A DNA stretch of 57,948 nt from an uncultured archaeon. GTDB taxonomy: Archaea > Asgardarchaeota > Thorarchaeia > Thorarchaeales > Thorarchaeaceae. Below the pieces are notes generated by a model, which was not told where the DNA came from, ran no database searches, and saw nothing but the letters and a program-made list of their open reading frames with translations. Each line of letters starts with the position of its first letter. The first letter of the stretch is position 1. Of this stretch, positions 22,963 to 38,898 are shown in pieces. The stretch covers positions 1 through 57,948 of the forward strand of contig CAYYQL010000015.1 of assembly GCA_964473825.1 (NCBI GenBank), given 5' to 3'. Position numbers and translations under genes: made by a program.

Positions 22963-23955
22963 TCATCGAACAAAGCTCTCAAGCGTGGATTGGGTGTTTC
23001 CAAAGTCCTTCCAGGACCAAACGAGGTCTCGTGTTATCTTCTCGGCCCTATCCTCATTCATTGTCAGACTGAGCATCTTCACCAGACGAGATGGTAGTGG
23101 CGGAGACAGAGTGAAATTGGTATTCCCGACATGAATTGATATCTCGCCCTCATCAAAGACCTCTCTTGCGCGCATCAACCCATCCCTCTCTTCGAAAGAA
23201 ACACCAAGATGTCTTAGAACCGATTGTAGGTCACCATGCCTGCGCAACAAGACTGTACCCTTCCTCGGACCGATACCTTTCACTCCAGAGTGGAAATCAC
23301 ATCCAGATAGGACTGCAAGGTCACGCAACTGTGAGGGGGTCAGGGTTGTTTCACTGATCAATGATGCCAGTGTGGTGCTCTCGATACGACCCTGTGTGAG
23401 TTCCAAAGCTCTGGTTGCATGAGGCGAACCAAAAAGGATCGTATCGGCGTCGTTGCTGACCACCGTGCCCACCTTTCTCTCACGGCATAACACGGCAGCG
23501 AAAAGCTCTGCCTCTGATGGCGCAGTGATCCCAGGAATGCCACAAAGACTGCATAAGTCCTTGACATGTTCAGCAGCAAAGTAGAGTCGAAGGGCAGGGC
23601 TGGTACGTAGATCATAGGCAATATCTTCATCGTACGCAGTCCCATTGCCACAGAATCGCCGATACAAACGATGTGCGTTCAAGACAAGCTCAGGGTTGGC
23701 ACGGCGCTTCAAGGCCTCAGGTGGCCCGTCAAATACGAATACGGGAAAAACATTGGCTCGAAGCGAGGCACGCACGATGCCAACAAGGATAGACACATGC
23801 TCTGTGGGAATCCGCTCTGGATTCCTCGGGTTTGAAAACACACTGAGCCTCCTTGACATGTAATTCGGAAAGTCGATAGCAAGTATCGGTACGCTAATGT
23901 CCTCCAAGGACTGCCAGCTCCAGTGCAACAGACCCTTCCAGTTACGCACGCCCAT
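22963..23955 (-). CDS. FEN1/XPG-family structure-specific 5' nuclease (paralog)
   Basis: MGV start, LAID, FVFDGPP..LK, APSEAE, SNDADTILFG, SGCDF...VKGIGPRKG (H3TH), C-terminal PIP-like QSTLESF. Confidence 0.92.
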   Translation of the reverse strand: MGVRNWKGLLHWSWQSLEDISVPILAIDFPNYMSRRLSVFSNPRNPERIPTEHVSILVGIVRASLRANVFPVFVFDGPPEALKRRANPELVLNAHRLYRRFCGNGTAYDEDIAYDLRTSPALRLYFAAEHVKDLCSLCGIPGITAPSEAELFAAVLCRERKVGTVVSNDADTILFGSPHATRALELTQGRIESTTLASLISETTLTPSQLRDLAVLSGCDFHSGVKGIGPRKGTVLLRRHGDLQSVLRHLGVSFEERDGLMRAREVFDEGEISIHVGNTNFTLSPPLPSRLVKMLSLTMNEDRAEKITRDLVWSWKDFGNTQSTLESFVR

Positions 23956-24684
23956 TCACGTTTCGCTCCTTATCGACCTAATACCCCCCGGACCGAGTCG
24001 TATGATCACTGCATCATAATCGACCTCGGATGGTGCACGTTCAATATGCACCTTGACATATTCGTTCATCTCTTCGCCCGCAACACTTGCAATATATACC
24101 ACGCTATCTACTGCATGGGCCAAAATGTTCCCGCCTGCAGGTCGACGAGTCCCATCACTCCACCTTTTAGTCGAATGATCAGTGAACACTACGGTCGAAT
24201 CGTTGTCATTTACAAAGCAGCGCAGGGCGTCAAGTGCTGCGAAGAATCTCCGGTTTGACTCCTTGCTATAAGGGCCACCACTAAGATTCAGGGCTCCGGT
24301 GAGACTGTCAATAATCACAAGTCTCGGTCCGAGAACAGCCATATCATCGATGAGGTCTACCAATGATTCCAACCCGAGAATCCTAGCAACATGGATTCTC
24401 GCCAGCACTTCCAGTTCCGACCCCGAGGAGAGTGCCCGAACTGAAGCAGAGGAGTAGTTAGTCCCCGAGTCTATGAAGGCTACTTCTGTATCAGACTTGG
24501 CGGCTGAAACTGCCAAGAGATGAGCAAACCATGTTAGAGGGGCTCGCTCACCGCTGTATACTACTGACATGAGCCGAGGCTGAAACGAGGACCCTAGCAC
24601 TGTATGCAGTACGTCAGGCTGTAACTGAATCTCTACGCCTGAATAGCCATTCTGCAAAGGGACTTCTCTAGGCAAGATTATCAC
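23956..24684 (-). CDS. RecA/Rad51-fold paralog, probably inactive (Walker A lost)
   Basis: LHTVLGSSFQPRLMSVVYSGERAPLTW replaces LD..LGGG...G....GKT. VAFIDS, LVIIDSL (Walker B) and PAGGNILAHAVD are retained. Confidence 0.8.
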   Translation of the reverse strand: MIILPREVPLQNGYSGVEIQLQPDVLHTVLGSSFQPRLMSVVYSGERAPLTWFAHLLAVSAAKSDTEVAFIDSGTNYSSASVRALSSGSELEVLARIHVARILGLESLVDLIDDMAVLGPRLVIIDSLTGALNLSGGPYSKESNRRFFAALDALRCFVNDNDSTVVFTDHSTKRWSDGTRRPAGGNILAHAVDSVVYIASVAGEEMNEYVKVHIERAPSEVDYDAVIIRLGPGGIRSIRSET

Positions 24685-25552
24685 CTGTTACCAGCTCATG
24701 GCAGACCAGTGCACGGTATGCTTGACCAGAAGAGAGTGGTTCAGTAGGTATTCCAGGCACTATGCTGCGAGGAACGAGAACTGAAACTCCCTCTGGAGAG
24801 GGGAAAAGCATCATGCGTACAGGCCATCTCTCGATAACTCTTTCTTTCGATGATGGAACGAGACTCACATAGTCTTTAGGCCGAACGCTGTCACTCAGCG
24901 GAAGGGCCAGCACAATGGACTCGAGCAGCATGTCCATTCGACTATATCGGAGACCATACTCATCTAGCACGCGACAAACACTCTCCAACTGACGAATTGG
25001 AAAAATTATAGTGTCAAGGTCTTGAAGTATCCAGATACTGACTCGAAGGACGCTTCTTTCATCCAGCATTCGAAGAACGGATTCACGCTGACCCTTTTCA
25101 AGCTCGAAGACCCGGAGATTCAAGGTAGAGATATCGTGTTGAAATACCGAGGAATAGGGCATTGACAGGACCATGGATATTTTCTTGGGATCCCGGACTA
25201 AAGCCATCAGAACGCAGACACCTCCTACCGAGCCAAGCAGCATTACTATCCCGGAAGGCAGCACGATGAAGAAGATTGCCAGACAGAGCATTCCCCCGAG
25301 AACAAGAGACATCGCATCAAGTATCGTCTTTGCGAGGTTCAACTTCTGACCCTCTTCTGACTTCACTGACTTCACCTGTCCGGACTTGTAGATCATCCCA
25401 AACGTCAAGACAGCCAACAAGATTAGGGGGGTTATGTTTCCCAGTCTAACCATAACGACAATAGAAGTTATCAAGGCCAACAATTCGGCCCCTATTGCCA
25501 AGACTACAGCTGCTGCAACAACATGCTTGGCAATGCGAAGTATGCCTATCAC
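24668..25552 (-). CDS. Membrane protein (4 N-terminal TM plus soluble domain), unknown function
   Basis: Hydrophobic N-terminal ~120 aa; overlaps both neighbouring genes. Confidence 0.75.
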   Translation of the reverse strand: MIGILRIAKHVVAAAVVLAIGAELLALITSIVVMVRLGNITPLILLAVLTFGMIYKSGQVKSVKSEEGQKLNLAKTILDAMSLVLGGMLCLAIFFIVLPSGIVMLLGSVGGVCVLMALVRDPKKISMVLSMPYSSVFQHDISTLNLRVFELEKGQRESVLRMLDERSVLRVSIWILQDLDTIIFPIRQLESVCRVLDEYGLRYSRMDMLLESIVLALPLSDSVRPKDYVSLVPSSKERVIERWPVRMMLFPSPEGVSVLVPRSIVPGIPTEPLSSGQAYRALVCHELVTGDNLA

Positions 25553-26175
25553 AGAACTACGCCCTCCTCCTCAAAGCTCAGCCTGTTGTTCGCGACTCTG
25601 AATCTCCAACATCGATCCCTTTCATTATCGTGGAGAGAGAAGGCGTCTGGGGAACCATCAGTATTAAGCTGCAGGTCAATATCAGCCCATTTCTTAATCG
25701 CCGCATGATGTACTGGCAACTGGTTTCCATCCAGTTCTCGAATTTGATTGGTGGCAACAATCGTAATACCCCTTGACAGCGACAAAGACACAATTGTAGG
25801 TAGCACCTCCTCGATGAGCTCTCGTCCCCAAGGGGAACCATCTCGCCGGCCCATATGAAGCACTCTCGTGATAGGATCAATGACAATGGTTTTCGTGTCA
25901 TCACGCAGTCTCTCCCGTAGTGTCAGGAGAGTCTGAATTGCGTCAGCCGGGTCTTGCGTGACGAGTATAGTTAGATTGTCCTTGAAACCTCCGTATGCGT
26001 CAAACATATTCCTCAGAGTCTTCATGAAGACGTATTTCCCGTCAAGGCATAACCATAGGACATGCCCCTCACGAGAACGTTTTGCGGCAATTGCGGAGCA
26101 AAGGAGTGTCTTCCCGGACCCTCCAATTCCCCAGATGTGCACGAGGCCGTTCAGGATACCAACGTCTGACACCAA
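25549..26175 (-). CDS. RadB-like RecA-fold ATPase
   Basis: HIWGIGGSGKT (Walker A), WLCLDG, IVIDPIT (Walker B), VATNQIRE. No N-terminal HhH domain. Confidence 0.85.
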   Translation of the reverse strand: MVSDVGILNGLVHIWGIGGSGKTLLCSAIAAKRSREGHVLWLCLDGKYVFMKTLRNMFDAYGGFKDNLTILVTQDPADAIQTLLTLRERLRDDTKTIVIDPITRVLHMGRRDGSPWGRELIEEVLPTIVSLSLSRGITIVATNQIRELDGNQLPVHHAAIKKWADIDLQLNTDGSPDAFSLHDNERDRCWRFRVANNRLSFEEEGVVL

Positions 26176-27810
26176 TTAGTCCTCCGTCTTCTTTAGGGCG
26201 GCACTCGTTGTTGACCCGTCCTCGTGGTTGATCCGTTCGTCCACAAGGCTATTCCTACGACCCACGATTTCAAGGCCCGTGAGAATCGGCTCGTGTGTAG
26301 CACAATCATCCGCGTCTGGCGCGATATCGGAGCCGGCACGTCTTGGCTCTTCTTGATCGGAGACGTCGGTCACCGAGCAAGCCGGGTCTTTGACCACTAT
26401 CTCCTCATCGGAAATCGCATCATGTACGCCCGCCTCCTCACCGCTCTTGTTAATGTCAGAGACCAGTTTGTCCTCTTCGGTTCTCCCAGTTAGTTCGGAG
26501 TCTGTATTATGGAGTTCTTCGTCAAATGTCTGAGCAGCCTTACCCAGACAATGATAGTTGATTGTGTCATCGACTATGCTCTTGGCCTCTGAACGCAGAA
26601 GTCCAGCTTGGAACAGAACGTCATTGAGAAGCGTGATATGCTTGATGAACTCCTCTTCTGAGAGAGGATTCGTTACATGTCCGGTCAGTGCAGCATATGA
26701 GAGGGCAATGCCTTCTTTCTGCTTTTCAATGCCTGGAACTCCCAGTCCTTCGAATAGGCCGATGAACTTGGCAAGACCCTTATCTCCAGAATAGTCATTG
26801 TCAACAGAACTAGATCTGAGAATGCACTCGCTGAAGACTTGGTCACAACGCTCCACAGCACTATCCAGGTCGTCCTCAGCGAGGGAGCGCGCGGCAAGAG
26901 ATAACATTGGAGAAATGACGAAATTCAGTTCGGCCATTTTCTCAATATCTTGCTTATTCTCGTCCAAGCTTCTCTTGAACCGTGACATATCGCCGATGCT
27001 CTTCGTAGCCTCCCGTTCAACCTGGCATACGGAACGAAAGTCATTCACAGCTTTCCGTGTCACCACAAGAAAGCACATCATGAAGAGGATGTCACCCAAG
27101 AGCAGAAGCAGAGGGATGAGAGATGCTACGGAGAGCAGAGCTAGAATGTTCGCAGCTGCAAAGATCAGTGCCGCGACCATATACCAACCTCTCACTCCCT
27201 TTTTCAGATGGTCCCATTTCTTCGAGTCTATACTCTTGGACAGCTCGGTGACACGCATCCGTCGGTCGCTACTAACGGAGATTGAGAACTCATCCAAGCC
27301 TATGATTTGGTTCTCATCGGTGAACCAACCCAGGTCGGATGAAGGGCGAGCACCATCAACAATAACGTACGCAGATCTCGACTCGAAGACCTCTGACCCG
27401 TTATCGTCATTCTCAGGTAGCAGCACAGGGATTTCAAGGGTCCCGCAGATAGTAGGAACTCTTCGTAGCTGCAGACGCTCACCAGAGTTCACGATGTTCA
27501 ACAACCGTTCCAATGGCTGAGTTGCAATCTCCAAGACCTCACTCTTGATGGCAAGGGGACTTCTCCCAAAGCTACTATTTCGAAGGTCGAGAACAATCAA
27601 TGTATCAACCAAGACCGAGTTTGTACCTTTGATTCCAATGTAGTTAGTACCAGCCAAGAGTCCATTCGCAAACTGGTGAGTGGTGTAGCCCATCTTATGC
27701 AATATACGCGCTATGTCACTCTCAGTTTCTGTAGGAGTTTCCTTAGACTCGGTCTCAGGATGTTCTTCAGTCGTTTCCTCTATCACTCTCTTCTCTGTCG
27801 CTTCCATCAT
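26176..27810 (-). CDS. Two-TM membrane protein with a helical domain and acidic low-complexity termini
   Basis: Track ORF 26176-27849; ATG at 27810 follows an SD-like GAGGAGG. Central TM hairpin WYMVAALIF...FMMCFLVV. Confidence 0.78.
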   Translation of the reverse strand: MMEATEKRVIEETTEEHPETESKETPTETESDIARILHKMGYTTHQFANGLLAGTNYIGIKGTNSVLVDTLIVLDLRNSSFGRSPLAIKSEVLEIATQPLERLLNIVNSGERLQLRRVPTICGTLEIPVLLPENDDNGSEVFESRSAYVIVDGARPSSDLGWFTDENQIIGLDEFSISVSSDRRMRVTELSKSIDSKKWDHLKKGVRGWYMVAALIFAAANILALLSVASLIPLLLLLGDILFMMCFLVVTRKAVNDFRSVCQVEREATKSIGDMSRFKRSLDENKQDIEKMAELNFVISPMLSLAARSLAEDDLDSAVERCDQVFSECILRSSSVDNDYSGDKGLAKFIGLFEGLGVPGIEKQKEGIALSYAALTGHVTNPLSEEEFIKHITLLNDVLFQAGLLRSEAKSIVDDTINYHCLGKAAQTFDEELHNTDSELTGRTEEDKLVSDINKSGEEAGVHDAISDEEIVVKDPACSVTDVSDQEEPRRAGSDIAPDADDCATHEPILTGLEIVGRRNSLVDERINHEDGSTTSAALKKTED

Positions 27811-29938
27811 ACTTTCCTCCTCGTCGTTCCTCAATTCGCCGGTAGACATCCCATGCCATCTCTGCGACTCGCTTCATGTTTCCAGCCTCAGCAATAGCCG
27901 CGATGCCATAGAGCAGCCAAATAGTTAAGTCCAGTAGAGCATGGATATCCCCGATATTCAAGTCACATCTTTCAGCTATCTCCTCTACGGACATAGAAGT
28001 GGAAACTATTGTGCCCACGATGAATTCCAGATCAATGCCTGCTTGCCCACCCTCACACCTTACGGCTATCTTCAATAGGTCTAGCAGGTCGATACTGCTT
28101 TCTGTAAGCGGCAGCAACGGCAACATCTCTCGCACTGTTCCCGGACTCAAGTAGAGCCTTGAGACTATCTTCCCAAGATGTGTTGCTCGTAAACCATCTC
28201 GCCCACCCTCGACCAGTCCCATCCGAACAAGCATCCGAACAGGACTTGACTCACTCAGTGACAAGGGAATGACATAGTCGGCAATCTCCTGATGCGTCCG
28301 GGCAGCATATACACCGAGATTCACAAGATGTGGGCACAGTACTCCCGATTCGCCAAGAGGCCGTCCACAACTACACATCGCACCCTCAGACATACCGCTT
28401 TGGTCTCGTCTGATTGAGAACCGGCAGGATGCATTAGTACCACCATCTGATATAAGAGCACCAACAACTGAATCAGAAATCTCTCGTAAGTCCACGGTGC
28501 CCAACACATTTTGCCTAGCCGCTCGAACAGTGCCGCTAAGCGCGTGCTTTTCGATTGCAGCGTCTGCTGAGACCTCTTCGAAGATGAAGCTCCTCATGGG
28601 GGCCATAGTGTCACGGACAGCCACAAACTGCAGGTAACTATCTGCAAAATAGTCATGTTCAATGGTCTCCAGATTGGCCCCTCCAAGAAAGTCAACGGCG
28701 ACTAAGAGCTGCTCGGTTAGGGCTGCAGAGTTATTTAGTGAGCTGTCTATCCGTAAGAACTTCGGCTCGAGACTACCAGCTCCCTCAAGGAAGTATCTAG
28801 ACTTCACCATCTCCGCCTCTCCACGGCTCTCAGTTATCACCACACCGAAACCTTTCGCGTCCTTTCCTGGCCGTCCAGCACGTCCGAGCATTTGATGTAG
28901 TCTGTTTGTATCGATGTAGTCTGTATGATTACCGGGACTTCGCACGCTGCTTACGATAACGGTACGAGCAGGGAGATCCATACCAGAGCCGAGGGTTGTG
29001 GTAGAACAAACCAACCTCACCATACCCTTCTGAAACATTGTTTCCACAAGACGCCTTGTTGGGGCGTCGAGCCCAGCGTGATGGTAGGCAACACCAGACT
29101 CGAGAAGGGTCTGAAGTGTTAATGGAACGGTGGTTCCGTAATGCTCAATGCTCTGGCGTTCAGACACTATTGCGTCCCTCTCCCGTGAGGTGAGCTGCCT
29201 AGTCACACTAGGTGCTAGTCTTTCGGCGATGGACTCTGTTGATGCCCTTGTCCTCAAGAATACAAGCACCTGCCCATTGCTTCTCACCGTTGACATCACC
29301 ACCCTCTTGATGGTCTCTCGACGATCATCGGTTTCCAGAACCGCACATTGGAGCGGCACAGGGCGTTCGTTCGACTCTACAAGCCTGCATCCAAGCCACT
29401 CAGCCAATTCGTCAGGTGCACCCACGGTGGCGGAGAGCGCAATAATCTGCAGGTTTTCAGGAATACTCCGTCGCATACGCATGATCACAGTTTCGAGGCG
29501 AGGTCCGCGGTTCAAGTCGCCCAAGTTCTGTATCTCATCGATGACCAATGTTCCGATGTCATTAATCCAACCTGTGCGGTGGCGCAAGAGAGAATCAGCA
29601 CGTTCGTAAGTCGTTACGATGATGTCATTCTCACTTAGCTCGTCTCCCACATGCTGGTAGTCACCAGTACTGAGACCCACCGACAGGCCCGTCAGATTCT
29701 GGTATCGTCCTCGCAGAGTGGTTGCGACCTGTCGAGCGAGAGCACGCAGAGGAACGATGTAGAGCCCCTTACGACCCTCAAAGACTGCCCGCAGCAGAGC
29801 CATCTCTCCTATCAGTGTCTTCCCCGACCCCGTTGGAGAAGAAACCATGATACTTGTTCCTTCCAAGAGACCGTTCTCAATCGCATCAATCTGAACACCC
29901 TTCGGCTTCAATCCCACGCGTGTCAAGAGAGCCTGCAC
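27767..29938 (-). CDS. Hel308/Ski2-like SF2 helicase with an inserted SWIM zinc finger
   Basis: SPTGSGKT, DEIQ, ALSAT, RPVPL, YHHAGL, TTTLGSGMDLPA, QMLGRAGRPG; CSC-x9-CPH SWIM motif. Confidence 0.92.
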   Translation of the reverse strand: MQALLTRVGLKPKGVQIDAIENGLLEGTSIMVSSPTGSGKTLIGEMALLRAVFEGRKGLYIVPLRALARQVATTLRGRYQNLTGLSVGLSTGDYQHVGDELSENDIIVTTYERADSLLRHRTGWINDIGTLVIDEIQNLGDLNRGPRLETVIMRMRRSIPENLQIIALSATVGAPDELAEWLGCRLVESNERPVPLQCAVLETDDRRETIKRVVMSTVRSNGQVLVFLRTRASTESIAERLAPSVTRQLTSRERDAIVSERQSIEHYGTTVPLTLQTLLESGVAYHHAGLDAPTRRLVETMFQKGMVRLVCSTTTLGSGMDLPARTVIVSSVRSPGNHTDYIDTNRLHQMLGRAGRPGKDAKGFGVVITESRGEAEMVKSRYFLEGAGSLEPKFLRIDSSLNNSAALTEQLLVAVDFLGGANLETIEHDYFADSYLQFVAVRDTMAPMRSFIFEEVSADAAIEKHALSGTVRAARQNVLGTVDLREISDSVVGALISDGGTNASCRFSIRRDQSGMSEGAMCSCGRPLGESGVLCPHLVNLGVYAARTHQEIADYVIPLSLSESSPVRMLVRMGLVEGGRDGLRATHLGKIVSRLYLSPGTVREMLPLLPLTESSIDLLDLLKIAVRCEGGQAGIDLEFIVGTIVSTSMSVEEIAERCDLNIGDIHALLDLTIWLLYGIAAIAEAGNMKRVAEMAWDVYRRIEERRGGKYDGSDREESDRGND

Positions 29939-29976
29939 ATCGGTACGTACACTATTCTCCGAGGAAGTCGTTGATG

Positions 29977-32307
29977 TCAGGACACATCACCTCCTTGGGG
30001 TTCACTCTGTTTCAGAGCCATCCGCCCCTTCATAGTCAGCCTGAAGTTCTTGTACGATACTCCCGCGTGTTGTTCGTGTCCTGGGAGAATCATATTGGCT
30101 TCTTCAAGACGCATCAACACAGCCTTGACATCTACATTCTCCTCATCTTGTGCCGAGATAAACTTCGAAATTGCCTCCTCTGTAAGGGGCTCATACTGGT
30201 CCAAGAGTTCAAGCACTCTCATGTTGATACCAGCGTCATCTTCGATTTGGTCCACCAACCTCTTAGAATGGAAAGTATGAGATCCTCTCGACTTGGTGAG
30301 AGACCTGCTCCGTTCCCTCAGAGATCGTAAATCCTCTACGATGAGGTCGGGCTCTTCGAAGAGACGCATGGGTCGGCAGGTCTCAGAGCCGTTAACTATG
30401 AGCACAGTGTCATCATCCATCACTCGTAAGAACGAGCTCTCTCTAGCAGACCACCGTGCCTTGCTATGCATGCCAGTCTCAATCACCTTCAACCCAAGGA
30501 GTTCTGACACAACTGCTACGTTGTCCCCACCCTTTGTCCGCCCGGCAATAACAGTCTCAATGCTGTTGGTGATACGCGCGGGGATCTCGTTCGGGTGCTC
30601 AACTGAAAGCACCACCCCGAAACGTTGGAGTAGTTCTCGAACCAGTCGTTGGGCAAAGAGACTTCGCTTCCGGTACTTCATGTTATCAACAAGGAAATTC
30701 TCGGCGTCATCAAAGAATACAACCAGATTCTCATCTTCTAGTGTGAGAAGCTTCAGTGCCAGCAGGTCAAGTGCAAAGATGTCCAGAGGTTCCGAACCGA
30801 GTCCGACTTTTACGATGGTCAGTTCATGCTCGCCCAGAGCAGACATGGGTACGGTCTGATGTCCATAGAAGGCCCGAGCGGCGCTGCCCTCTAGGAGTGT
30901 CTGGATAGCAGCCATCCCGGCCCGTGAAGCATCATTCTGCTCCCTGTCTTCACGGCTGCTGACTGAGGGATCTCCACCCATGGGGTCATCGCTCTGAATC
31001 CGCACATCTGCAATGGTCGTATCATTGAGAGCTACAGCTCGTGAAAGCGCGCCTTCGAACATCGGAGCATTACTCAAGTCTTTTCCTGCAACAATCTCAA
31101 GAGCTGTGATGAGTCTGGGCAAGTATGTGGTACGGTCTATTCCGTCTGAGTCGACCGGGTTAAGTATCAGATCCGAACCGAGGCGTAGAATAACTCCACT
31201 GTCGCTGAGAGCGACCAGCTCATCAGCTAGGGGATTTGTGCTTACCAGAATTATCCGCTTCCCATCTCCGAGAAGGGCCTGTATCGTCAAGGCCTCTATG
31301 CGCCTGCGCAGGGCATAATCACTTCCGCAGATGATCGTCCCGGTCCGGATGTTATCGTAAGTCGGCCCTGTTCGAGGACCTAACTCCAAGGTGTCAGGAT
31401 TGAGTATTCTACCAAGATAGTATTGGTCGGGTTGTTCTCTGATAGGTGCAACAAACTGCCCTGGTACCGACTCACCTACTTCAGCTGCAAGCTCGGTCCT
31501 CATCTGGACAAGCCATTCACTTAGTTCGATTCCCAGAGCATAAAACGCATCACTACTGAGTGCCAATCGTCGCACCTCGAGCCTCTTCTTCTGAACCCAT
31601 GTCAGATCCTTCCAGTTTCGCGATGGAATCGCACCCTTGACTGAGTTACGACATCTGGCAAGCGTTGATAGCTCGCTAGATTGCAGAATTACCTGCACTG
31701 AACTCTGCCAGAGCCCCCCACGTTTCTGGAAATAACCATACAAAGCGTCGTGTTCCAGATGATCCAGATATGCTTCGTGAGCACCGGAGATCGTGTTGTC
31801 GTTTACAATGGCACGTAGCTTAGCTGGGGCCATTCGTACACTTACAAATAGTGCGGCGGATGTTGGAACGCCTCTGACGAGCCGACTCATGTCGCCACTA
31901 AGGATAGCACCTGGAGCATCTAATCTTAGTCCAGTCAAGTACACTGAGGGATTGCTGCTGGTCTTGCGAAGATATCCGAGAGAACCATTACCTGTACCAG
32001 GTCTGGAGAGATCTAGATTGCGCTCCTTAACCCTCATGAGTCCAGTCCGCTCTAACATCCTGATAGGCCTGAAATAGTAGAAGTACACAAGGAACAAGAA
32101 GAGTACTCCTGACCCTCCAATAACCCAATACGGTGCAACCATGCTTGTCACGAGTGAAGCCAAGCTGCAGAGGGCCACGACTTCCCACGGTCTACTCACG
32201 CTACGGTCTACCCACTTGATGTCTACGCTTTCTTGTACTGCGTATCTTGCACCCTTGACTTCTTCGAGGGGGTCCTTCGTAGGCTTTGAACCGAGAACAT
32301 GACTCAT
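29977..32307 (-). CDS. Membrane-anchored VirB4/HerA-like P-loop protein with a degenerate Walker A and a C-terminal winged helix
   Basis: Two N-terminal TMs; GTIICGSDYALRR at the Walker A position; ILNPVD; VVFFDDAENF (Walker B); VLSVEHPNEIPARITNSIETVIAGR resembling the HerA/VirB4 Q.P..l......n..T...fR motif; C-terminal wHTH. Confidence 0.68.
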   Translation of the reverse strand: MSHVLGSKPTKDPLEEVKGARYAVQESVDIKWVDRSVSRPWEVVALCSLASLVTSMVAPYWVIGGSGVLFLFLVYFYYFRPIRMLERTGLMRVKERNLDLSRPGTGNGSLGYLRKTSSNPSVYLTGLRLDAPGAILSGDMSRLVRGVPTSAALFVSVRMAPAKLRAIVNDNTISGAHEAYLDHLEHDALYGYFQKRGGLWQSSVQVILQSSELSTLARCRNSVKGAIPSRNWKDLTWVQKKRLEVRRLALSSDAFYALGIELSEWLVQMRTELAAEVGESVPGQFVAPIREQPDQYYLGRILNPDTLELGPRTGPTYDNIRTGTIICGSDYALRRRIEALTIQALLGDGKRIILVSTNPLADELVALSDSGVILRLGSDLILNPVDSDGIDRTTYLPRLITALEIVAGKDLSNAPMFEGALSRAVALNDTTIADVRIQSDDPMGGDPSVSSREDREQNDASRAGMAAIQTLLEGSAARAFYGHQTVPMSALGEHELTIVKVGLGSEPLDIFALDLLALKLLTLEDENLVVFFDDAENFLVDNMKYRKRSLFAQRLVRELLQRFGVVLSVEHPNEIPARITNSIETVIAGRTKGGDNVAVVSELLGLKVIETGMHSKARWSARESSFLRVMDDDTVLIVNGSETCRPMRLFEEPDLIVEDLRSLRERSRSLTKSRGSHTFHSKRLVDQIEDDAGINMRVLELLDQYEPLTEEAISKFISAQDEENVDVKAVLMRLEEANMILPGHEQHAGVSYKNFRLTMKGRMALKQSEPQGGDVS

Positions 32308-32591
32308 GGCGACACACCACGCTTAGTGTGCATTCGCTCCGCTGATAGTGAGCTCATAGCACGAAGAAGTCCTCTCACTCGTTCAATGGTGCGGGTTTCG
32401 TCCTGTTGGATGAGAACGCGGTCATGCATCAGAGCCACAGGCGGGTAGATCTTGGAATGTCCCACTGCATTGAGTGGGTCATTCAGCAACACAGTCCATG
32501 AATAGGACAGCCCTTTCATGGCGTCCATCACATCTCCCGAATTGACTCCAGCAGGAATCTCAATGGTCTCAAACTGCTTCAATCTCTTCAA
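32304..32591 (-). CDS. Small hypothetical protein (95 aa), operon member
   Basis: Overlaps the upstream gene by 23 nt and is ATGA-coupled to the downstream gene. Confidence 0.65.
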   Translation of the reverse strand: MKRLKQFETIEIPAGVNSGDVMDAMKGLSYSWTVLLNDPLNAVGHSKIYPPVALMHDRVLIQQDETRTIERVRGLLRAMSSLSAERMHTKRGVSP

Positions 32592-33162
32592 TGCCTCCTG
32601 AATCCGCTAGAACGGAGTCGGCCAAGTTACCCATGGCAATAGCAACATGAGGGTAAGCTGCATTCATGGCAGCACGCAGGATATGAGCATCTTCGATTAC
32701 CCGGTCCCTCAATCGCTCGAAGGTGTCAATAAACGGAATGCGAAGTCCCTGTCGAATCACTTTGAAACCAAGTCGAGTCCGCGAGTTTCCCAACGGCCGC
32801 GCGAGGATGAATGTGACCTCTCCCCCTCTCGAATGATGATAATGATCATGCATTGCCAGTAAAACACGCTTGGCTGAGTGAGACAGGGTGATTCCGATTG
32901 GAATCCTATCAAACAGAACCAGACTTGATACTTCCACCGTAAAGGGTCGCGTATCCACAAGTACGTTGTTCTCCCCATCCCAGTATCGTGAATGGTTGGG
33001 TGAATGCAACAGCAGAACGATGCCTATCACTACGATACCCAATCCACTGAGTGACAGAAGCACTGAGTGCAACGATTTATCGAAGGCCAAACGCAACACC
33101 CAGCCTAAGGCCAGTGCAATGGGTATACCGATAGTAGCCAACCAGCTTAGTTGCTCTCTCAA
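32569..33162 (-). CDS. Two-TM membrane protein with an alpha/beta soluble domain
   Basis: Two N-terminal hydrophobic helices; TTGA overlap with the XPD stop. Confidence 0.72.
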   Translation of the reverse strand: MREQLSWLATIGIPIALALGWVLRLAFDKSLHSVLLSLSGLGIVVIGIVLLLHSPNHSRYWDGENNVLVDTRPFTVEVSSLVLFDRIPIGITLSHSAKRVLLAMHDHYHHSRGGEVTFILARPLGNSRTRLGFKVIRQGLRIPFIDTFERLRDRVIEDAHILRAAMNAAYPHVAIAMGNLADSVLADSGGIEEIEAV

Positions 33163-35111
33163 GTAGCATTCCTCCAGAACATCTCGATTGCCTCGATAAG
33201 CTCGTCCTCAGTGGAATAGGGCCAAGTATCAGCAGCTGCACGGGAGCCCAGCATGGTAACATGCCGCAGGAACCTGTTGTCAAGCAATACCACCACACCA
33301 CGGTCTGCAGGAGAACGCCTCAGACGCCCCACTAGTTGAACCACCCTTCGAAGGGCGGGCATCACCGCTGCGTAATAGTAACCTCGACCCTCTCCGAGTC
33401 GTCGGTCGTACCATGATTGTAACGCAAGCTGATACGAAGTGGGCGGGGCGAACGGAATTCCAACACCAACAACAAGGTCCAAGAGACTCGCACCCCTATC
33501 TACTAGGTCGACTCCTTCCGAGAACTTGCCACCATAGACAGAGTACAGCACAGAAGGCTCTTCCAGAAGCATCTCCCGTATATCGTCAACTCGTGCATTG
33601 CGCTCTTCCACTACTCGCCTGCGAAAACCGTCCTCAACGCCATAGCTCAGGACATCATTCATGATGGCATAGCTAGAGAAAGCAACAACCGCACTCTTGT
33701 TTGCAGGACTATGCGTGAGCACCAGTGAGAGATTCTGAGCAAGAGCCCCATACAGCGAGGCAGAACGATTCTTGTAGGCGGTATTCAGCTTCTTGTCTAT
33801 CAGTACGAGTCGCGAGCCGACCGGATAGGGACTGGCTATGTCACAAACTTCAGCGTCCCGTACGCCAAGGATTGTTGCATAGTGGCTGGTTGGCCGAAGC
33901 GTACCACTCATCAGGACAGCAGACCGCGTACTGTGTACGAGATAGGAGCATAATCCTGCAGTATTCAGGGGGCGGATACAGAGCCTCGTATGGGAAAGGC
34001 GAGGATTCTCGTCCCACGTTCTGCCAGTCTCAAAGGTGATGTGCCAGTCATCCTGGTCACTCGACTCCGAAGCTAAGGTCGCCGCGTACAAGAAATCCAA
34101 GAGGCGGTCAGCAGGTGTTTCGGCCCCGATTACATCATCGCCTCTCTGCACATATCCAGTCTTGGTAAGCAGCAACGATATGTCGGCCTCAACTGCAAAC
34201 CTCGGAAGTACCTCCCAGATGTTGAGCTCTCGTTCGCCGCCATTATGCAGCCGACCTGTGTTCAAGGTGAATGTGTCCCAAAGGAATTCTATGACATCTT
34301 CTAACCATTCGTAGCCGGTCTCTCGCGAGAGGTCTTTTTTATGCTCCCTCAACCACTGGATATCTTGCCCGCTGATTGACGCCGACTCAGATTCAGCCAT
34401 CTGTTCGGGAAGGTTATGGGCCTCATCTACTAACAGGTCAATCTCATCGATTGAGAGATCCAATGATGAGAGGAATGCCTGTTGCACACGACTCTTCAAC
34501 AAGTAGGCGTAGGGTCCTATGATCACTTGGCTTCTCTTCGCACACCACCGCAGGAGTTCGTAGGGGCATATCCCCCAATCCCTCGAAACGGCCTCTGCTG
34601 TGCTGCGGTCAACAACTGACTGTGCGACTGCTTCCTCTATTGCAGCACGGGCGTTCTCCCGCACTTGGCCTCTATCACCTCGTGCATCGTAGAAACTATG
34701 ATAGTATGGGCACTTCCCAGTCCTGACAAGATATGCACAACCCCGAATAAAGCCGAAATCGCTCATCTTGTTAATCTCTCCGACATTGGGGCAGACATGA
34801 ACTCTACTTACCATGCTTGTGGCGATGATCGGGAATCGGTCAGCAAGGGTAAGACACTCTTCCTCAAACACGCTCGATTGACTATGAGTCCGGGTGAGCA
34901 CAACTAGTCGAGTCTTCTCATGGTTCGACCTTGCCCCCACAAAGGCACTGAGAACTGCTATTGTCTTTCCCACTCCGCAGTCTGCGGAGAGTAACCCTAT
35001 CTTACCACTCCTGAAAATGTCTGCAGCGTACTCTATGGCGGTCTCCTGCCCATCCCGTAATCTGTACGGAAACACATCGTGGACCGGGTCGAGGTACGTT
35101 CCTGAACTCAT
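33159..35111 (-). CDS. XPD/Rad3/DinG-family Fe-S SF2 helicase
   Basis: RDGQ Q-motif, ADCGVGKT, TRTHSQ, four Fe-S Cys (VCP, GC, KCPY, ICPY), DEAH, SGT, EGVD, QLVGRLRR, LDNRF. Confidence 0.93.
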   Translation of the reverse strand: MSSGTYLDPVHDVFPYRLRDGQETAIEYAADIFRSGKIGLLSADCGVGKTIAVLSAFVGARSNHEKTRLVVLTRTHSQSSVFEEECLTLADRFPIIATSMVSRVHVCPNVGEINKMSDFGFIRGCAYLVRTGKCPYYHSFYDARGDRGQVRENARAAIEEAVAQSVVDRSTAEAVSRDWGICPYELLRWCAKRSQVIIGPYAYLLKSRVQQAFLSSLDLSIDEIDLLVDEAHNLPEQMAESESASISGQDIQWLREHKKDLSRETGYEWLEDVIEFLWDTFTLNTGRLHNGGERELNIWEVLPRFAVEADISLLLTKTGYVQRGDDVIGAETPADRLLDFLYAATLASESSDQDDWHITFETGRTWDENPRLSHTRLCIRPLNTAGLCSYLVHSTRSAVLMSGTLRPTSHYATILGVRDAEVCDIASPYPVGSRLVLIDKKLNTAYKNRSASLYGALAQNLSLVLTHSPANKSAVVAFSSYAIMNDVLSYGVEDGFRRRVVEERNARVDDIREMLLEEPSVLYSVYGGKFSEGVDLVDRGASLLDLVVGVGIPFAPPTSYQLALQSWYDRRLGEGRGYYYAAVMPALRRVVQLVGRLRRSPADRGVVVLLDNRFLRHVTMLGSRAAADTWPYSTEDELIEAIEMFWRNAT

Positions 35112-35112
35112 C

Positions 35113-35703
35113 TTATCGCTCCCACCTGAGCTTTGACTCGGATTTCTGAACCATGAACTTCACGGAGAAGTATGCATGCAGCAACTCCTCGAATTGCTTC
35201 AGCTGAAATGGAGAAGTAAAGCCCTGTTCCTTGCGGCCCATTCGTTCGACGATGCGTCGGCTGAACCCCCGTTGTCTTGCGGCCTTCCAGAAGTAAGCGA
35301 CCACTTCATCCACAGTCTCATAGAAAAACTGGGCAGTGTCCTGCATGAGCCTCACCAGAAAACTAATGCTCCTGCCCCGGTCTTCCGGAATATCCGAGAG
35401 GCGAACACCTGTGGGGATATGAACCATGACGCCCTCCAGTGACTCCAAGTTTACCTCTGTGGGCACTGCGTTAGAACCACGAGCACTCTCGATGATAGCA
35501 AGAAGTCTGGGAAGATAAGGCAGTATCGGGGATTCGAAATCTTCAGAGCGCCAGGTCACCCGAGTAATGAGATAAATCTCAGGGTCGAGTTCTACATATC
35601 CTGGAAGCCTGATCAGCGCAAGTCGTTCCTTACCATTGCGGCGTGAGAAGTTCACGAGGCGGATTAGGTTCTGTGCAGGAGAAGTATCTGAAACAGCTGT
35701 CAT
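35113..35703 (-). CDS. Hypothetical protein (~196 aa), operon member
   Basis: Track ORF 35113-35772; ATG at 35703 forms an ATGA overlap with the upstream stop. Confidence 0.72.
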   Translation of the reverse strand: MTAVSDTSPAQNLIRLVNFSRRNGKERLALIRLPGYVELDPEIYLITRVTWRSEDFESPILPYLPRLLAIIESARGSNAVPTEVNLESLEGVMVHIPTGVRLSDIPEDRGRSISFLVRLMQDTAQFFYETVDEVVAYFWKAARQRGFSRRIVERMGRKEQGFTSPFQLKQFEELLHAYFSVKFMVQKSESKLRWER

Positions 35704-36104
35704 AGCAAAGTGACCTCCTTTCCTACCAGACGAATCCGTTCTATGGCCTCTAACCGATTCAGGAAATGCCAAGCGCGTTCTGTGGAAATATCTGCATCAC
35801 TGCACTCGTTGAGCACGTCTGAAACTTGTACGGGTCGGCCCCGATTTCCATCGACCAGACATTCAACGATGTCCAACACACGTGCCTGCACACCTCGCCC
35901 GCGACTGATGCTTCGGGTTGGGCGCACTCTCTCTTGTGACATCGATGCCATGATGACCCTCGCCTGCTCTATGGTGTCTACTGACTGGTAATTCCCTATT
36001 TCTTGACCACAGACACTACAAGTCAGAGTGTCACTAACGTCTTCGATTTTCTGAAACCCAAGCTGGTGACAGCCGTCACAGCGATACATGTAGAAGACCG
36101 TCAC
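35700..36104 (-). CDS. Zinc-ribbon plus C-terminal winged-helix protein
   Basis: CDGC...CSVC, then VLDIVECL...PVQVSDVLNECSDADISTERAWHFLNRLEAIERI (wHTH pattern). Coupled on both sides. Confidence 0.78.
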   Translation of the reverse strand: MTVFYMYRCDGCHQLGFQKIEDVSDTLTCSVCGQEIGNYQSVDTIEQARVIMASMSQERVRPTRSISRGRGVQARVLDIVECLVDGNRGRPVQVSDVLNECSDADISTERAWHFLNRLEAIERIRLVGKEVTLL

Positions 36105-37159
36105 TCCTTCCCGTCCTCCTGCCCTCCGTCCTCCACCACTGTTCCGTCAGGCATCAGACGAGCATTCCAGCCCTGCTTCTTGATGAACTTGTCAATCTTC
36201 TTCTTCGCGGCCGTCTTCATATCTTTGTCCTCATAGAAGCCACCCCAGCCAAGCTCAACCTTGGCCTCGAACTCAGGAATTCCAGCATTGTCCTTGAGCT
36301 GAATTCTCCGTTCGGTACCCTTTGCTGGTCTTGTGTAGAAACGATAGTCACAGCCATGGGCCAGAATGTGCCCGCCAATGGGAGCAGTGCCGCTGTAGTA
36401 GGAGCCAATGTTTGTTAGTACCTGATTTGTATAGAGGAAGATTGTTCCGGTTGCTACACCGGTACGGCGCATCGAGTTCAGAAGGGAGTTCATGTCCTTC
36501 TGTCGCACACTGAGGTTGTTCAGGGCAGTGTATTCTGCTCTGAACAGACCACTGAAGGAGTCGATAACCACAAGCTTGTAGTTCTCCTCCGCACAGAGTC
36601 GGGGTATAGTTTCGAAGGTGTCAATAATCTGACTTGAGAGGATCATCTGCGATATCCCTATGTTCCCTAAGACCACCTCAGGGTCAAGACCGAATCGGAT
36701 GGCTGTGGCACGAATCACCCATGGCTTGAAACTGCTCTCACTGTCCATCCACAAGACTCTCCCACCTAGTCCACCCTCGTCCACTGGGAGCTGTGCTCTC
36801 ACTGCCAAGTGGCAAGACCACTGTGTCTTTCCGCCCCGAGCAGCACCATAAATCTCCACAATGGAGGATTCCTCGATGCCACCAAGGAGCTGATCATCGA
36901 TGTCGGGAATGCCGAAGGTGAGACGATTCTTTGCGGCCATCTTCTTCTCAAACTCAAGGCCACTCTGGAACCCGTGCATGCCGATCATCTGGCGGGCGTT
37001 CCGTACAATTTTCGCAGCGGTTCCCTCGCCTAATTTCGTCTTCTCCTGCAGTTCGACAGGGTTCTGTACAGCCAGTAGTTCAGCTGTGGTCACAAATATT
37101 CCATTCAGTTTTTTTGCTGTTCCAGGGCCTACGCCCGGGACTGCCTCTAATTCTGTCAT
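36101..37159 (-). CDS. RadA/Rad51-like recombinase paralog with N-terminal HhH domain
   Basis: LEAVPGVGPGTAKKL, IDDQLLGGIE, EIYGAARGGKTQ, WMDSESSFKP, LVVIDS, FRAEY, TNQV, PIGGHILAH. Confidence 0.92.
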   Translation of the reverse strand: MTELEAVPGVGPGTAKKLNGIFVTTAELLAVQNPVELQEKTKLGEGTAAKIVRNARQMIGMHGFQSGLEFEKKMAAKNRLTFGIPDIDDQLLGGIEESSIVEIYGAARGGKTQWSCHLAVRAQLPVDEGGLGGRVLWMDSESSFKPWVIRATAIRFGLDPEVVLGNIGISQMILSSQIIDTFETIPRLCAEENYKLVVIDSFSGLFRAEYTALNNLSVRQKDMNSLLNSMRRTGVATGTIFLYTNQVLTNIGSYYSGTAPIGGHILAHGCDYRFYTRPAKGTERRIQLKDNAGIPEFEAKVELGWGGFYEDKDMKTAAKKKIDKFIKKQGWNARLMPDGTVVEDGGQEDGKE

Positions 37160-38154
37160 GTTGATTCCTCCATAATCAGTCGTAGACTCTCGGAGGACTC
37201 GTAGACGGTCCTCCAGAGTTCAATGTCTCTTGCTTCATCCGATTCGTCGTAGAATCCCCCGTAGCCCATGTACGCCGATACGTCGCGTATCGAGTCGTTC
37301 CCCACTCCTCCCTTCTTGACAGTGATGCGGTACTCGTTACGCCTCCTCTTTCGCATGCTCAGCACGGTAGTGGATAGAGAGTTGACAACGAACTCGGCAT
37401 CCGGCTCGTATTGATCGTGGCAGTACAAACCCCCGATGCTCTCATGGACGCCATTCGTGAATACAACACAGAGATCGTGGGCCAACGCTATTTCGAGGAG
37501 GCGGCGAAGAAAGCGACCAAGGTCACGCTTCGCAGCCAGACTGTAAGTGAGCCCGAGGTACTCCGTCTGGAATATGCTGGACAGCGAGTCTATGACCAGG
37601 AGTGCGTACTCTCGCTCGCTATCAGAGAGGAGGGAGTACATCTGCTGGACAATCTCTTCAAGATCGAACTGTGTGATGGCCAAAGCGTGGTCGATCATGT
37701 CCAGAACTGAGTCAGGATTCCATCCGCATCTTGTGGCAATGGTTCTCGTAAGATAGGGCTTGAATGTGGCCCCGCTGTCTATCCAGAGGACTCGTCCATG
37801 GGCACTTGCCCGCACCGCCAGCTGACAACACAGCGTTGTCTTCCCAGATGACGATTTCCCATGGATATGCGTCACCGTCCCCGTACGAACCCCTCCCACT
37901 AGGACCTTGTCAAGACCCCTAACAGCAGTTCGAATGTGACGACCTGAATCAAATTCTTGAGAAGGCATTAGCTCAGATGGGAAGATGAGCCTACGAGCAT
38001 GCCGCTGAAGCTCCTCAAACCTCTCAGATCCAAGCTCATCTAAGACAGGGAGTGTTTCGATCATGGCAAGATGCTCCGCGCTATGTATTCCAGCATTCTT
38101 GAGGCGCTTGGCCGTGGCCGGCCCGATATCTCTGACCTTCTCAAGTGCCGTCAC
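37156..38154 (-). CDS. Second RadA/Rad51-like paralog with N-terminal HhH domain
   Basis: Track ORF 37156-38268; GTG at 38154 (GTGA overlap) preferred. LEKVRDIGPATAKRLKNAGI, LDKVLVGGV, HGKSSSGKT, WIDSGATFKP, LLVIDSL, FTNGV. Confidence 0.88.
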   Translation of the reverse strand: MTALEKVRDIGPATAKRLKNAGIHSAEHLAMIETLPVLDELGSERFEELQRHARRLIFPSELMPSQEFDSGRHIRTAVRGLDKVLVGGVRTGTVTHIHGKSSSGKTTLCCQLAVRASAHGRVLWIDSGATFKPYLTRTIATRCGWNPDSVLDMIDHALAITQFDLEEIVQQMYSLLSDSEREYALLVIDSLSSIFQTEYLGLTYSLAAKRDLGRFLRRLLEIALAHDLCVVFTNGVHESIGGLYCHDQYEPDAEFVVNSLSTTVLSMRKRRRNEYRITVKKGGVGNDSIRDVSAYMGYGGFYDESDEARDIELWRTVYESSESLRLIMEEST

Positions 38155-38816
38155 GCCGTGACACCCCCTGCGGTCTGATGCGCCTGGTATGCCTGTTCTG
38201 TGTGCAGGAAATTGACCACTGAAGATAGCAGGGGGTCTCGAAGACGCTCCCGACTGAAAGCAGAACATAGCATAGTATCAGCAGTCTTCACTAGAATCCG
38301 TAGTGCAGTAGACCGATGTGTATTCGTCGACCAACCGTCTGATCCCGAGATCAAGCCCGAGGCAGAGGAGAGAAAAGACATCCATCGCCTGCGCGTGACT
38401 TCGGGAAGCAAGTCCTCTGACTCCTTCAAGAGGCAGTCGTAGAATAGCTCACAATGGCGGTCCCACATGGCAAGAACCTGTGATGCAGTGCGCAAGGTGT
38501 GTATGGGGCTTCTATCATCAAAGCTCATGTAGACCTTAGTGGTGTCGTTTCGCACGATTGCTCCACCCTGTATTCCTGGTTGAGTTATGGCAACAAGAGC
38601 AGGTACTAGTGCAGGTACATCACAAAGGAAGAAGCGCCGCGGCTGTTGAACGAACGGGCTGAGAATAGTGCTCCGCAACCCCCAGAGCATAGTAAGAAAG
38701 GACCTGTGGCTCAGTGAACTCACGAGTACTCTGTCTGCGGTATTGAACCTGCTTATGGACTTCCGCAGGTCAACAGTCTGACTCGAGCACATCTCTGGAA
38801 GAAGACTAAGTAACAT
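38151..38816 (-). CDS. Hypothetical protein, first gene of the recombination operon
   Basis: 221-aa ORF with ATG preceded by AGGTGA; coupled to the next gene by GTGA. Confidence 0.68.
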   Translation of the reverse strand: MLLSLLPEMCSSQTVDLRKSISRFNTADRVLVSSLSHRSFLTMLWGLRSTILSPFVQQPRRFFLCDVPALVPALVAITQPGIQGGAIVRNDTTKVYMSFDDRSPIHTLRTASQVLAMWDRHCELFYDCLLKESEDLLPEVTRRRWMSFLSSASGLISGSDGWSTNTHRSTALRILVKTADTMLCSAFSRERLRDPLLSSVVNFLHTEQAYQAHQTAGGVTA

Positions 38817-38898
38817 CCATTTTCACCTATGGAGATATTCTAACCAGAGAAGTATTCAGTCTTCGCTAGCATGTCGATACGGATTATGCTTTCCGTAT

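Follow-up and report, generated by a model that had tools for sequence, protein, structure and literature searches.

A conserved Asgard operon joining paralogues of recombination enzymes to a membrane-anchored VirB4-like protein

Domesticated type IV secretion systems have been described in the Sulfolobales (Ced) and the Thermoproteales (Ted), where a VirB4-like protein acts with membrane proteins in the import of DNA for repair; HerA/Rad50 are encoded alongside the Ted loci (PMC9905601). Here we describe an operon of 15 genes, g1 to g15, which lies on the minus strand at positions 22963-38816 of a 57,948-nucleotide stretch of DNA from an uncultured archaeon of the Thorarchaeaceae (GenBank assembly GCA_964473825.1, contig CAYYQL010000015.1; the whole stretch is called the window below). 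The operon joins a VirB4-like protein, g9, and other membrane proteins to paralogues of RadA, RadB, XPD, Hel308 and FEN1. Like Ced and Ted (PMC9905601), it is a chromosomal archaeal locus with a VirB4-fold protein and small membrane proteins. Ted loci likewise lie beside recombination genes (HerA, Rad50), and neither Ced/Ted nor the operon has a relaxase or an integrase. Among known systems the operon is closest to Ced and Ted, yet it falls outside that family, because its ATPase site is degenerate and VirB6-like and VirB2-like parts could not be shown. Most likely it is an Asgard-specific machine, carried on the chromosome and passed on mainly by vertical descent, which handles DNA at the cell envelope and delivers it to homologous recombination.

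The operon and its proteins

The window is contig C15 of a 3.27-Mb genome which is 95.7% complete. All 15 open reading frames (ORFs) of the operon run in one direction and are tightly packed. Seven junctions are 4-nucleotide start/stop overlaps, at 38154 (GTGA), 37159 (ATGA), 36104 (GTGA), 35703 (ATGA), 33162 (TTGA), 32307 (ATGA) and 25552 (GTGA); the remaining junctions abut or overlap, the widest gap being 38 nucleotides (g9/g10), and GGAGG-like motifs precede many of the starts. This layout agrees with a first-pass annotation of the window, which had listed the 15 co-oriented minus-strand genes with their coordinates, the seven overlaps and gaps of at most 38 nucleotides. It had also recognised no integrase, relaxase or capsid gene; likewise, Pfam and PHROGs searches found no integrase, relaxase, capsid or viral family in the window, which also contains no tRNA and no Rfam RNA family, and a repeat search found no flanking direct repeats or element boundaries around the operon. 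The guanine plus cytosine (GC) content of the operon, 0.51-0.53, is slightly above that of its flanks (~0.49). The intergenic region upstream of g1 (38817-39180) is AT-rich, with a TATA-like stretch, gatataatagtaataagg, ~110 nucleotides before the ATG and an 11-codon mini-ORF, and is probably the operon promoter region.

The protein g9 (29977-32307) has 776 residues and is anchored in the membrane. In an AlphaFold2 model built from an alignment of 26 orthologues (predicted local distance difference test (pLDDT) score 75), it consists of a transmembrane (TM) hairpin at ~41-88, a VirB4-like N-domain, a RecA-like ATPase-fold domain at 286-656 and a C-terminal winged helix at ~690-770. The TM hairpin is also seen in the hydropathy profile. 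The protein has zero matches in Pfam, NCBIfam, PADLOC and PHROGs. Residues 286-656 of the model match the VirB4 C-domain (4ag5) with a Z score of 28.5 and a root mean square deviation of 2.8 over 325 residues, while DndH-C and HerA match at a Z of about 25 (HerA 24.7). Full-length TrwK/VirB4 of R388 aligns with the model over residues 95-666, and sequence identity to VirB4 structures is just 8-12%. Other fold matches include SIR2-HerA, DUF4297-HerA, TdpAB and DndH, and a search of BFVD with the model gave only generic VirB4/HerA/FtsK-like phage proteins. The family is rare, with 196 representatives among 1.84 billion.

The nucleotide-binding motifs of g9 are degenerate. Its Walker A motif keeps its length and reads GxxxxxR, with an invariant Arg334 where lysine is expected, and its Walker B motif, hhhhD[D/G/S]xE, lacks the DE pair. 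Both are degenerate in all lineages, which comprise 26 Thorarchaeota sequences and distant Asgard homologues. From the arginine in place of lysine and the missing DE pair, g9 is probably a pseudo-ATPase scaffold that is dead for ATP. The first-pass annotation had called g9 a VirB4/HerA-like protein, and the model does match both folds. Its comparison with Ced, which uses a VirB4/HerA-like ATPase for import, does not extend to the motor: the Walker lysine and the DE pair are gone in every lineage, and g9 therefore cannot be a Ced-type motor.

The other recognisable proteins of the operon are enzymes of recombination and repair, or relatives of them, and each scores far below its equivalog cut-off (Pfam and NCBIfam). 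Sites were called intact or dead by alignment against the canonical copies from the same genome. The RadA paralogue g3 (36101-37159) has a HhH N-domain and intact Walker motifs (A, GAARGGKT; B, LVVIDS), and matches Pfam Rad51 (4e-33 for g2, below; 2e-48 for g3) as well as HHH_5. It reaches 235 bits on the NCBIfam RadA equivalog, under the cut-off of 259; the canonical copy (contig C38) scores 315 bits on Pfam Rad51. Because of this sub-cut-off score, and because canonical RadA falls in a separate clade, g3 is not the housekeeping RadA orthologue; it is likely to be the recombinase of the system. The second RadA-like protein, g2 (37156-38154), has 332 residues from its GTGA-coupled start (the longest ORF starts at 38268), an intact Walker A motif (GKSSSGKT) and 28% identity to g3; both g2 and g3 match Rad51/RadA with the HhH N-domain. 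The product of g12 (25549-26175) is a small RadB-like RecA-fold ATPase, with a weak RadB match (32 bits), an AAA_25 match and an intact Walker A motif, GIGGSGKT, of which the GK is invariant across the g12 family. A further RecA/Rad51-fold protein, g14 (23956-24684), matches Rad51 weakly (25 bits) and has a dead Walker A motif, the position reading SGERAPLT (family consensus HGxERAPLT).

XPD unwinds DNA in the 5'-3' direction and Hel308 in the 3'-5' direction, and the operon encodes a paralogue of each. The XPD/Rad3-type protein g6 (33159-35111; DEAD_2 and Helicase_C_2) retains the four FeS cysteines, GKT and DEAH when aligned with the canonical XPD. The Hel308/Ski2-type protein g10 (27767-29938; DEAD and Helicase_C) scores 373 bits on the Hel308-type model, which has a cut-off of 887. 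It retains the helicase core and lacks the C-terminal HhH domain 5, so the five-domain Hel308/Hjm architecture is incomplete. A SWIM zinc finger (CxC...CxH) is inserted in g10, and this insert is also retained by distant Asgard homologues. The flap nuclease paralogue g15 (22963-23955) matches XPG_I and XPG_N; it is classed as a paralogue of FEN1 because it reaches 115 bits on fen_arch, below the equivalog cut-off of 352. It retains all the acidic active-site positions of the canonical copy and ends in a PIP-like motif, QSTLESFV (canonical QSTLTDFL). Thus catalytic motifs are intact in g2, g3, g6, g10, g12 and g15, and dead in g9 and g14. The small protein g4 (35700-36104) combines a zinc ribbon of four invariant cysteines (C9, C12, C29, C32) with a C-terminal winged-helix-like domain; its matches to zinc-ribbon libraries are weak, and those to MCM winged-helix domains are non-significant (E 0.02-0.12). 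The first-pass domain calls were right for the two RadA-like proteins, the RadB-like protein, the Walker-dead RecA fold, XPD, SWIM-Hel308, the FEN1-like protein and the 2-TM and 4-TM proteins. A predicted complex of g12, g14 and the C-domain of g13 (residues 125-294) scored 0.00, which speaks neither for nor against binding.

The remaining operon proteins are membrane proteins and soluble proteins which belong to no recognised family: for g1, g5, g7, g8, g11 and g13, the libraries Pfam, NCBIfam, PADLOC and PHROGs gave no match, and profile searches of PDB sequences gave nothing significant for g4, g5, g7, g11 and g13, or for the 578- and 664-residue proteins encoded next to the operon. The protein with the most TM helices is g13 (24668-25552; 294 residues), with four long TM helices and a C-terminal double ferredoxin/ACT-like domain. 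Hydropathy gives four to five TM segments and the AlphaFold2 model (pLDDT 81) four long helices. This model has no clear relative in the PDB (best Foldseek E 0.01, best VIA Z 8.0); background-level rows at Z 6-7, such as EccE of ESX systems and the TrwK N-domain, were not used. On the model, g13 would be the best channel candidate of the operon. Hydropathy also predicts two N-terminal TM helices followed by a ~140-residue domain in g7 (32569-33162; 197 residues), which is present in all loci and has no PDB or profile match, and two central TM helices in g11 (26176-27849), an acidic protein of ~545-557 residues which is present in all loci and in the sister family and is unmatched in any library. 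Between g7 and g9 lies g8 (32304-32591; ~95 residues), which is conserved in position and barely in sequence; the g7-g9 gap of other loci is also occupied by a small ORF. Candidates for a pilin are g7, with its two N-terminal TM helices but a length of 197 residues and no PDB profile match, and small 2-3-TM proteins in distant versions of the system. The first-pass annotation had proposed comparing the membrane proteins with CedA and VirB6. The model bears out the 4-TM call for g13; a CedA/VirB6-like or pilin match could not be shown.

The operon opens with g1 (38151-38816), a soluble protein of 221 residues, and 10 of 14 Thorarchaeota loci have an orthologue, at 22-30% identity, in this first place. 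The soluble protein g5 (35113-35703; ~197 residues, with an ATGA-coupled start at 35703) is present in all 14 loci (14/14) and in the sister family. Hidden Markov model (HMM) hits in distant loci had hinted at a paralogous relation between the TM proteins and the g9 N-domain. This idea was dropped because profile-profile comparisons found no relation between g7 and the g9 N-terminus, g13 and the g9 N-terminus, or g13 and g7.

Conservation, inheritance and reach of the system

The order of g1 and g3-g15, membrane genes included, is identical in 14 Thorarchaeota genomes from about 13 genera, so the synteny expected by the first-pass annotation is found across the Thorarchaeota. Of the 85 genomes of the family, 53 gave a match to g9 and 58 to the SWIM part of g10; in at least one case (G332) the gene seems to be missing only because the contig stops within g11. 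The gene list of that annotation stands as a conserved set for g1 and g3-g15 and not for g2, which is confined to the genus of the window plus one 56%-identical metagenomic relative, with only three close proteins among 5.8 billion. In 11 of the 14 other Thorarchaeota loci the slot of g2, between g1 and g3, holds an unrelated conserved gene for ~150 residues (e.g. L046:2601-3044, L053:2545-3012) with the motifs WLAGAxAG and LGGYIS, and a six-frame HMM search found no remnant of it in the window. Reduced versions also occur. One genome has just g10-g15, with an N-terminally extended g10 of 975 residues (G369, L159; G369:C1:1480000-1499999), another lacks g1-g3 and has a short g4 (G320, L050; closed chromosome CP070761), and the sister-family genome lacks g12-g15 (G311, L059). 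A 2.1-kb contig binned as 'Desulfuromonadales bacterium' (MAXT01000013.1, L105) carries a g9 fragment 42% identical to that of the window, and is most likely a mis-binned Thorarchaeota contig.

The genes of the operon are a dedicated set of diverged, spare paralogues, since the canonical genes are located elsewhere in the genome: radA on C38, fen1 on G000:C33, xpd at G000:C2:101250, hel308 on C2, and an adjacent herA-nurA pair at C2:257813/258990 (a DUF87 search of the genome gave no match on contig C15). The first-pass annotation had expected such paralogues, and canonical copies of radA, fen1, hel308 and xpd were indeed found on other contigs. Housekeeping copies are not all scattered, as the canonical xpd and a RadB-like gene lie ~2 kb apart (G000:C2:101250-104431). 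Between genera g3 is 56-60% identical, against 82-91% for canonical RadA in the same genome pairs; on such sequence comparisons, the rate of evolution of the operon proteins is several times that of the housekeeping ones.

The Thorarchaeota g3 copies form one clade (Shimodaira-Hasegawa-like support 0.999), apart from the canonical Asgard RadA clade, in FastTree trees which are of modest size and in which related genomes are non-independent samples. The operon RadA copies thus make their own clade, as the first-pass annotation had anticipated. A second RadA clade has been reported in some Asgard lineages, with no gene context given (PMC12722695). Branching in the g9 tree largely mirrors the division into genera, and two different genera have canonical radA 78-79 kb away from the operon; these two observations suggest that inheritance is mostly vertical and chromosomal. 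Models of archaeal RadA give operon RadA a higher score than RAD51/DMC1 models do. A link to the origin of Rad51 paralogues and of the meiotic machinery, which had also been proposed, is not upheld, as operon RadA is closer to the archaeal RadA models and evolves fast within one archaeal family.

Beyond the Thorarchaeota, six further Asgard families (genomes G005, G006, G095, G117-G120, G122, G123 and G128) encode homologues of the g9 C-domain of about 480-535 residues, each preceded by a TM protein of 280-357 residues which matches the g9 N-terminus. With the sister family (G311, in which g9 is full-length), this makes seven families beyond Thorarchaeota in which a VirB4-like g9 homologue lies at most 10 kb from SWIM-Hel308. 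Gene order around this pair varies between the families, and small 2-3-TM proteins, large secreted or anchored proteins, and RadB-like, RadA-like and FEN1-like genes are often found nearby. Given this recurrence, the VirB4-like pseudo-ATPase and SWIM-Hel308, in a membrane context, are taken as the conserved core, of which the Thorarchaeota version is the richest. On one distant Asgard metagenomic contig, a single strand carries a 1337-residue Prenyltrans+Ig protein, a RadB-like protein, a 3-TM protein, SWIM-Hel308, small TM proteins and a split g9. Another scaffold (L156:6535-11752; ENA ERZ23499107 scaffold_343) encodes a g9-like pseudo-ATPase of 850 residues, preceded by small membrane proteins and followed by an 873-residue DUF87 protein with an intact Walker A motif, GGTNMGKS; there are no recombination genes there. 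Here a live ATPase may work alongside the dead one, in what could be an ancestral form of the system or an alternative to it.

The system also reaches beyond the operon itself. The block 22963-38816 holds as the operon that the first-pass annotation had described, but not as its full extent, since a larger block is conserved, with a giant gene, a 5-TM gene and the genes for the 578- and 664-residue proteins. The giant surface protein (12555-20294, minus strand; 2579 residues) has, from Pfam matches and TM ends, a signal-like N-terminus, a prenyltransferase-type alpha/alpha toroid, MG2, many Ig-like repeats and a C-terminal TM anchor. At least 28 Thorarchaeota genomes have its gene ~10 kb past g9 on the same contig, with both genes on one strand. 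The 1337-residue protein of the distant Asgard contig is a counterpart of it, encoded beside the core. GTGA-coupled to it is the gene for a 198-residue protein with five TM helices by hydropathy (20291-20887, minus strand), which adjoins the giant gene in G313, G363, G389 and G311. The gene for a soluble 578-residue protein (21141-22877, plus strand) is convergent with g15 and adjoins it in at least 9 of 14 loci and in G332; Pfam/PHROGs-type scans and the PDB gave no family or match for this protein. That for a soluble 664-residue protein (39180-41174, minus strand), which has no family match and only insignificant PDB matches, is upstream of g1 here and follows the giant gene in other genera. 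In the sister family (G311) a single strand carries g3, g4, g5, g6, two small TM genes, g9, g10, g11, a 198-like gene and a giant-like gene, in that order.

A GH3-family (acyl-adenylate-forming) gene, at 41431-42972 of the window, is a recurrent neighbour. In G313, G363 and the sister family (G311) it immediately precedes the operon, and in the window the 664-residue gene is inserted between it and g1. Further along, at 44329-45606, the window encodes a 425-residue protein with a C-terminal Ras/Roc small-GTPase domain, which is typical of Asgard genomes.

Candidate functions of the operon

Our tentative first choice, held at a little short of an even judgement, is that the operon serves DNA transfer between cells coupled to homologous recombination. 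DNA uptake or exchange is plausible, and mating or fusion may be read from the gene content. We infer all physical contacts, the crossing of the membrane by DNA and the direction of transfer, and would favour import over export, the transferred DNA then being integrated. The giant surface protein would make contact with the outside, and ATP-dead g9 would form a membrane-anchored ring or scaffold with g7, g8, g11, g13 and the 198-residue protein. SWIM-Hel308 (3'-5') and XPD (5'-3') would provide the motor and unwinding work of which a dead ring is not capable. The strand might then be paired with the chromosome by g3, joined by g2 in the genus of the window, with RadB-like g12 and Walker-dead g14 assisting g3 as mediators, and g15 could dock on PCNA through its PIP-like tail and trim flaps. 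The complete picture is of an ancient, lineage-wide Asgard machine for chromosomal DNA exchange, in which a giant adhesin makes contact, an ATP-dead VirB4 ring derived from a type IV secretion system (T4SS) scaffolds the conduit, SWIM-Hel308 and XPD serve as motors, and integration falls to the system's own RadA, RadB and dead RecA together with a PCNA-docked FEN1. That all of this should hold together is unlikely.

In favour of the first choice are the tight packing of the operon, the status of every recognisable enzyme as an extra copy, the conserved order of genes including those for membrane proteins, the signs of vertical inheritance, the VirB4 fold of g9, the pattern of intact and dead motifs, the linkage of the giant protein and the 5-TM protein to the operon in at least 28 genomes, the recurrence of the core in seven further Asgard families, and the precedent of Ced and Ted. 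Several observations weigh against a transfer function. The only T4SS-like part shown is a VirB4 fold with no working ATPase site, and even its T4SS origin is, on the model, likely and not certain, because the VirB4, HerA and DndH folds score close to one another (Z 28.5 against about 25). Neither a channel of the VirB6/CedA kind nor a pilin like VirB2 could be recognised, as the 4-TM g13 is structurally unmatched and g7 and g11 have no match. The operon is modular, with partial loss in G369, G320 and G311, and it diverges fast within one family (g9 is 33-43% and g13 22-29% identical), which would fit a defence system too.

The same genes could instead form a membrane-tethered factory for repair and recombination in which no DNA is transferred, the dead VirB4-like ring and the TM proteins only anchoring a second toolkit. 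Its targets might perhaps be membrane-attached chromosome regions, recombination-dependent replication restart or the equalising of genome copies. In that case the giant surface protein would have a regulatory role or be encoded nearby with no relation to the factory. We consider this unlikely but a serious rival. All the recognisable enzymes are of repair or recombination types with intact sites, the PIP-like motif of FEN1 points to PCNA-coupled synthesis, g9 appears incapable of the usual ATP hydrolysis, no channel or pilin was recognised, and inheritance is vertical and chromosomal. However, the genome already has a full housekeeping set, and a TM hairpin joined to a VirB4-type N-domain is a typical trait of machines that span the envelope. 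Across two families and in a distant lineage, linkage to both the giant secreted protein and the 5-TM protein also persists, which makes a purely internal process hard to accept.

In another rival reading, the operon would be a defence system, in which a surface or membrane sensor detects the entry of DNA, and the helicases and flap nuclease unwind and destroy an invading virus or plasmid, in the manner of Zorya (a membrane complex with a helicase/nuclease), Hachiman (with its Hel308-like HamB) and HerA-scaffold systems. Such a defence role seems rather improbable to us. It would account for components that all diverge faster than the housekeeping copies and for modular content with partial losses; HerA-type rings scaffold several defence systems, with SIR2-HerA, DUF4297-HerA, TdpAB and DndH among the fold matches of g9, and PADLOC matches g10 to HamB models and g6 to type IV DinG models. 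These PADLOC matches are to generic helicase cores, however, and no unrecognised protein matches a defence family. No toxin-like effector was recognised in the Pfam scan, and no known defence effector is a recombinase with an intact ATPase site, a mediator-like RecA fold or a FEN1 that docks on PCNA. Nor is the locus a shuffled defence island, being single-copy and fixed in position, with a tree following genera.

That constancy of order and chromosomal position across genera, with a tree that follows them, also weighs against a relic of an integrated conjugative element or virus, whose genes would be a transfer set plus a replication-recombination set. In favour of a relic, VirB4-like proteins are a hallmark of conjugative elements, the g9 model is matched by VirB4/HerA-like proteins of large phages, and the GC content is slightly above that of the flanks. 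Against this, the window has no integrase, relaxase, capsid, PHROGs match or tRNA, no flanking direct repeats were found, and the VirB4-like protein is catalytically degenerate in all lineages. We regard such an origin of the present locus as very improbable.

If it is true that the operon moves DNA between cells, it would be the first known Asgard apparatus for DNA exchange, and gene flow among Asgard archaea would bear on how the eukaryotic ancestor acquired genes and on the start of recombination-based sex. An exchange machine would also be a prokaryotic precedent for a SWIM protein and a HELQ-type helicase paired with mediators resembling Rad51 paralogues. Even if its role is repair only, the operon is a second, fast-evolving recombination toolkit alongside the housekeeping one, with a conserved, probable pseudo-ATPase that likely derives from a secretion motor, and a SWIM-Hel308/pseudo-ATPase pairing which recurs in at least eight Asgard families.

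Comparison with known systems

To our knowledge, no described system unites recombinase paralogues, a helicase pair of opposed polarity, a flap nuclease, a membrane-anchored VirB4-like scaffold and a giant surface protein, and literature searches found no paper describing the operon. Its parts have counterparts in several known systems. The best structural match of g9 is VirB3-VirB4 of bacterial T4SS (TrwM/TrwK of R388; Thermoanaerobacter VirB4), and its N-terminal TM hairpin is arranged as in VirB3-VirB4 fusions. However, g9 has no Pfam VirB4 match, its ATPase motifs are degenerate and it has an extra C-terminal winged helix, and no other T4SS parts were recognised. The HerA-NurA(-Mre11-Rad50) system of end resection resembles the operon in its ring fold, which is that of the HerA/FtsK superfamily (Z about 24.7 with g9), and in its association with a nuclease and with proteins of recombination. 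Unlike HerA, g9 has no DUF87 match, is membrane-anchored and is probably ATP-dead, and the nuclease of the operon is FEN1-like, not NurA.

The HerA-type ring fold and the Hel308-like helicase core are also shared with the defence systems SIR2-HerA, DUF4297-HerA, TdpAB/DndH and Hachiman HamAB, whereas the operon has a membrane-anchored ring, by its motifs ATP-dead, and recombinases. PADLOC 2.0 found no HamA, SIR2, DUF4297, Zor or Dnd partners; its matches are confined to generic DinG and HamB models, hit by the helicase cores of g6 and g10, and g1, g4, g5, g7, g9, g11, g13 and g15 are unmatched.

There are two further likenesses. Bacterial natural transformation (ComEC, ComFA, DprA, RecA, RadA/Sms) would follow the same logic, from a membrane apparatus through a helicase motor, a mediator and a recombinase to trimming, but only as an analogy, since nothing in it is homologous to the operon except the RecA fold. 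The eukaryotic Shu complex, with its SWIM protein SWS1/Shu2, and HELQ with BCDX2 resemble the operon in combining a SWIM finger, a Hel308/HELQ-type helicase and active and dead RecA-fold paralogues. These Rad51-paralogue assemblies have no membrane part, however, and operon RadA groups with archaeal RadA, not with RAD51/DMC1.

Ced and Ted remain the nearest comparison, and the differences from them are of three kinds. CedB and TedB are working ATPases, whereas g9 has arginine for the Walker lysine and no DE pair. Ced and Ted have a VirB6/CedA-like channel of 6-7 TM helices and a VirB2-like pilin, for which counterparts in the operon could not be shown. Finally, Ced and Ted are without paralogues of RadA, RadB, XPD, Hel308 or FEN1 and without a giant surface protein, whereas the operon, together with its conserved neighbours, has all of them.

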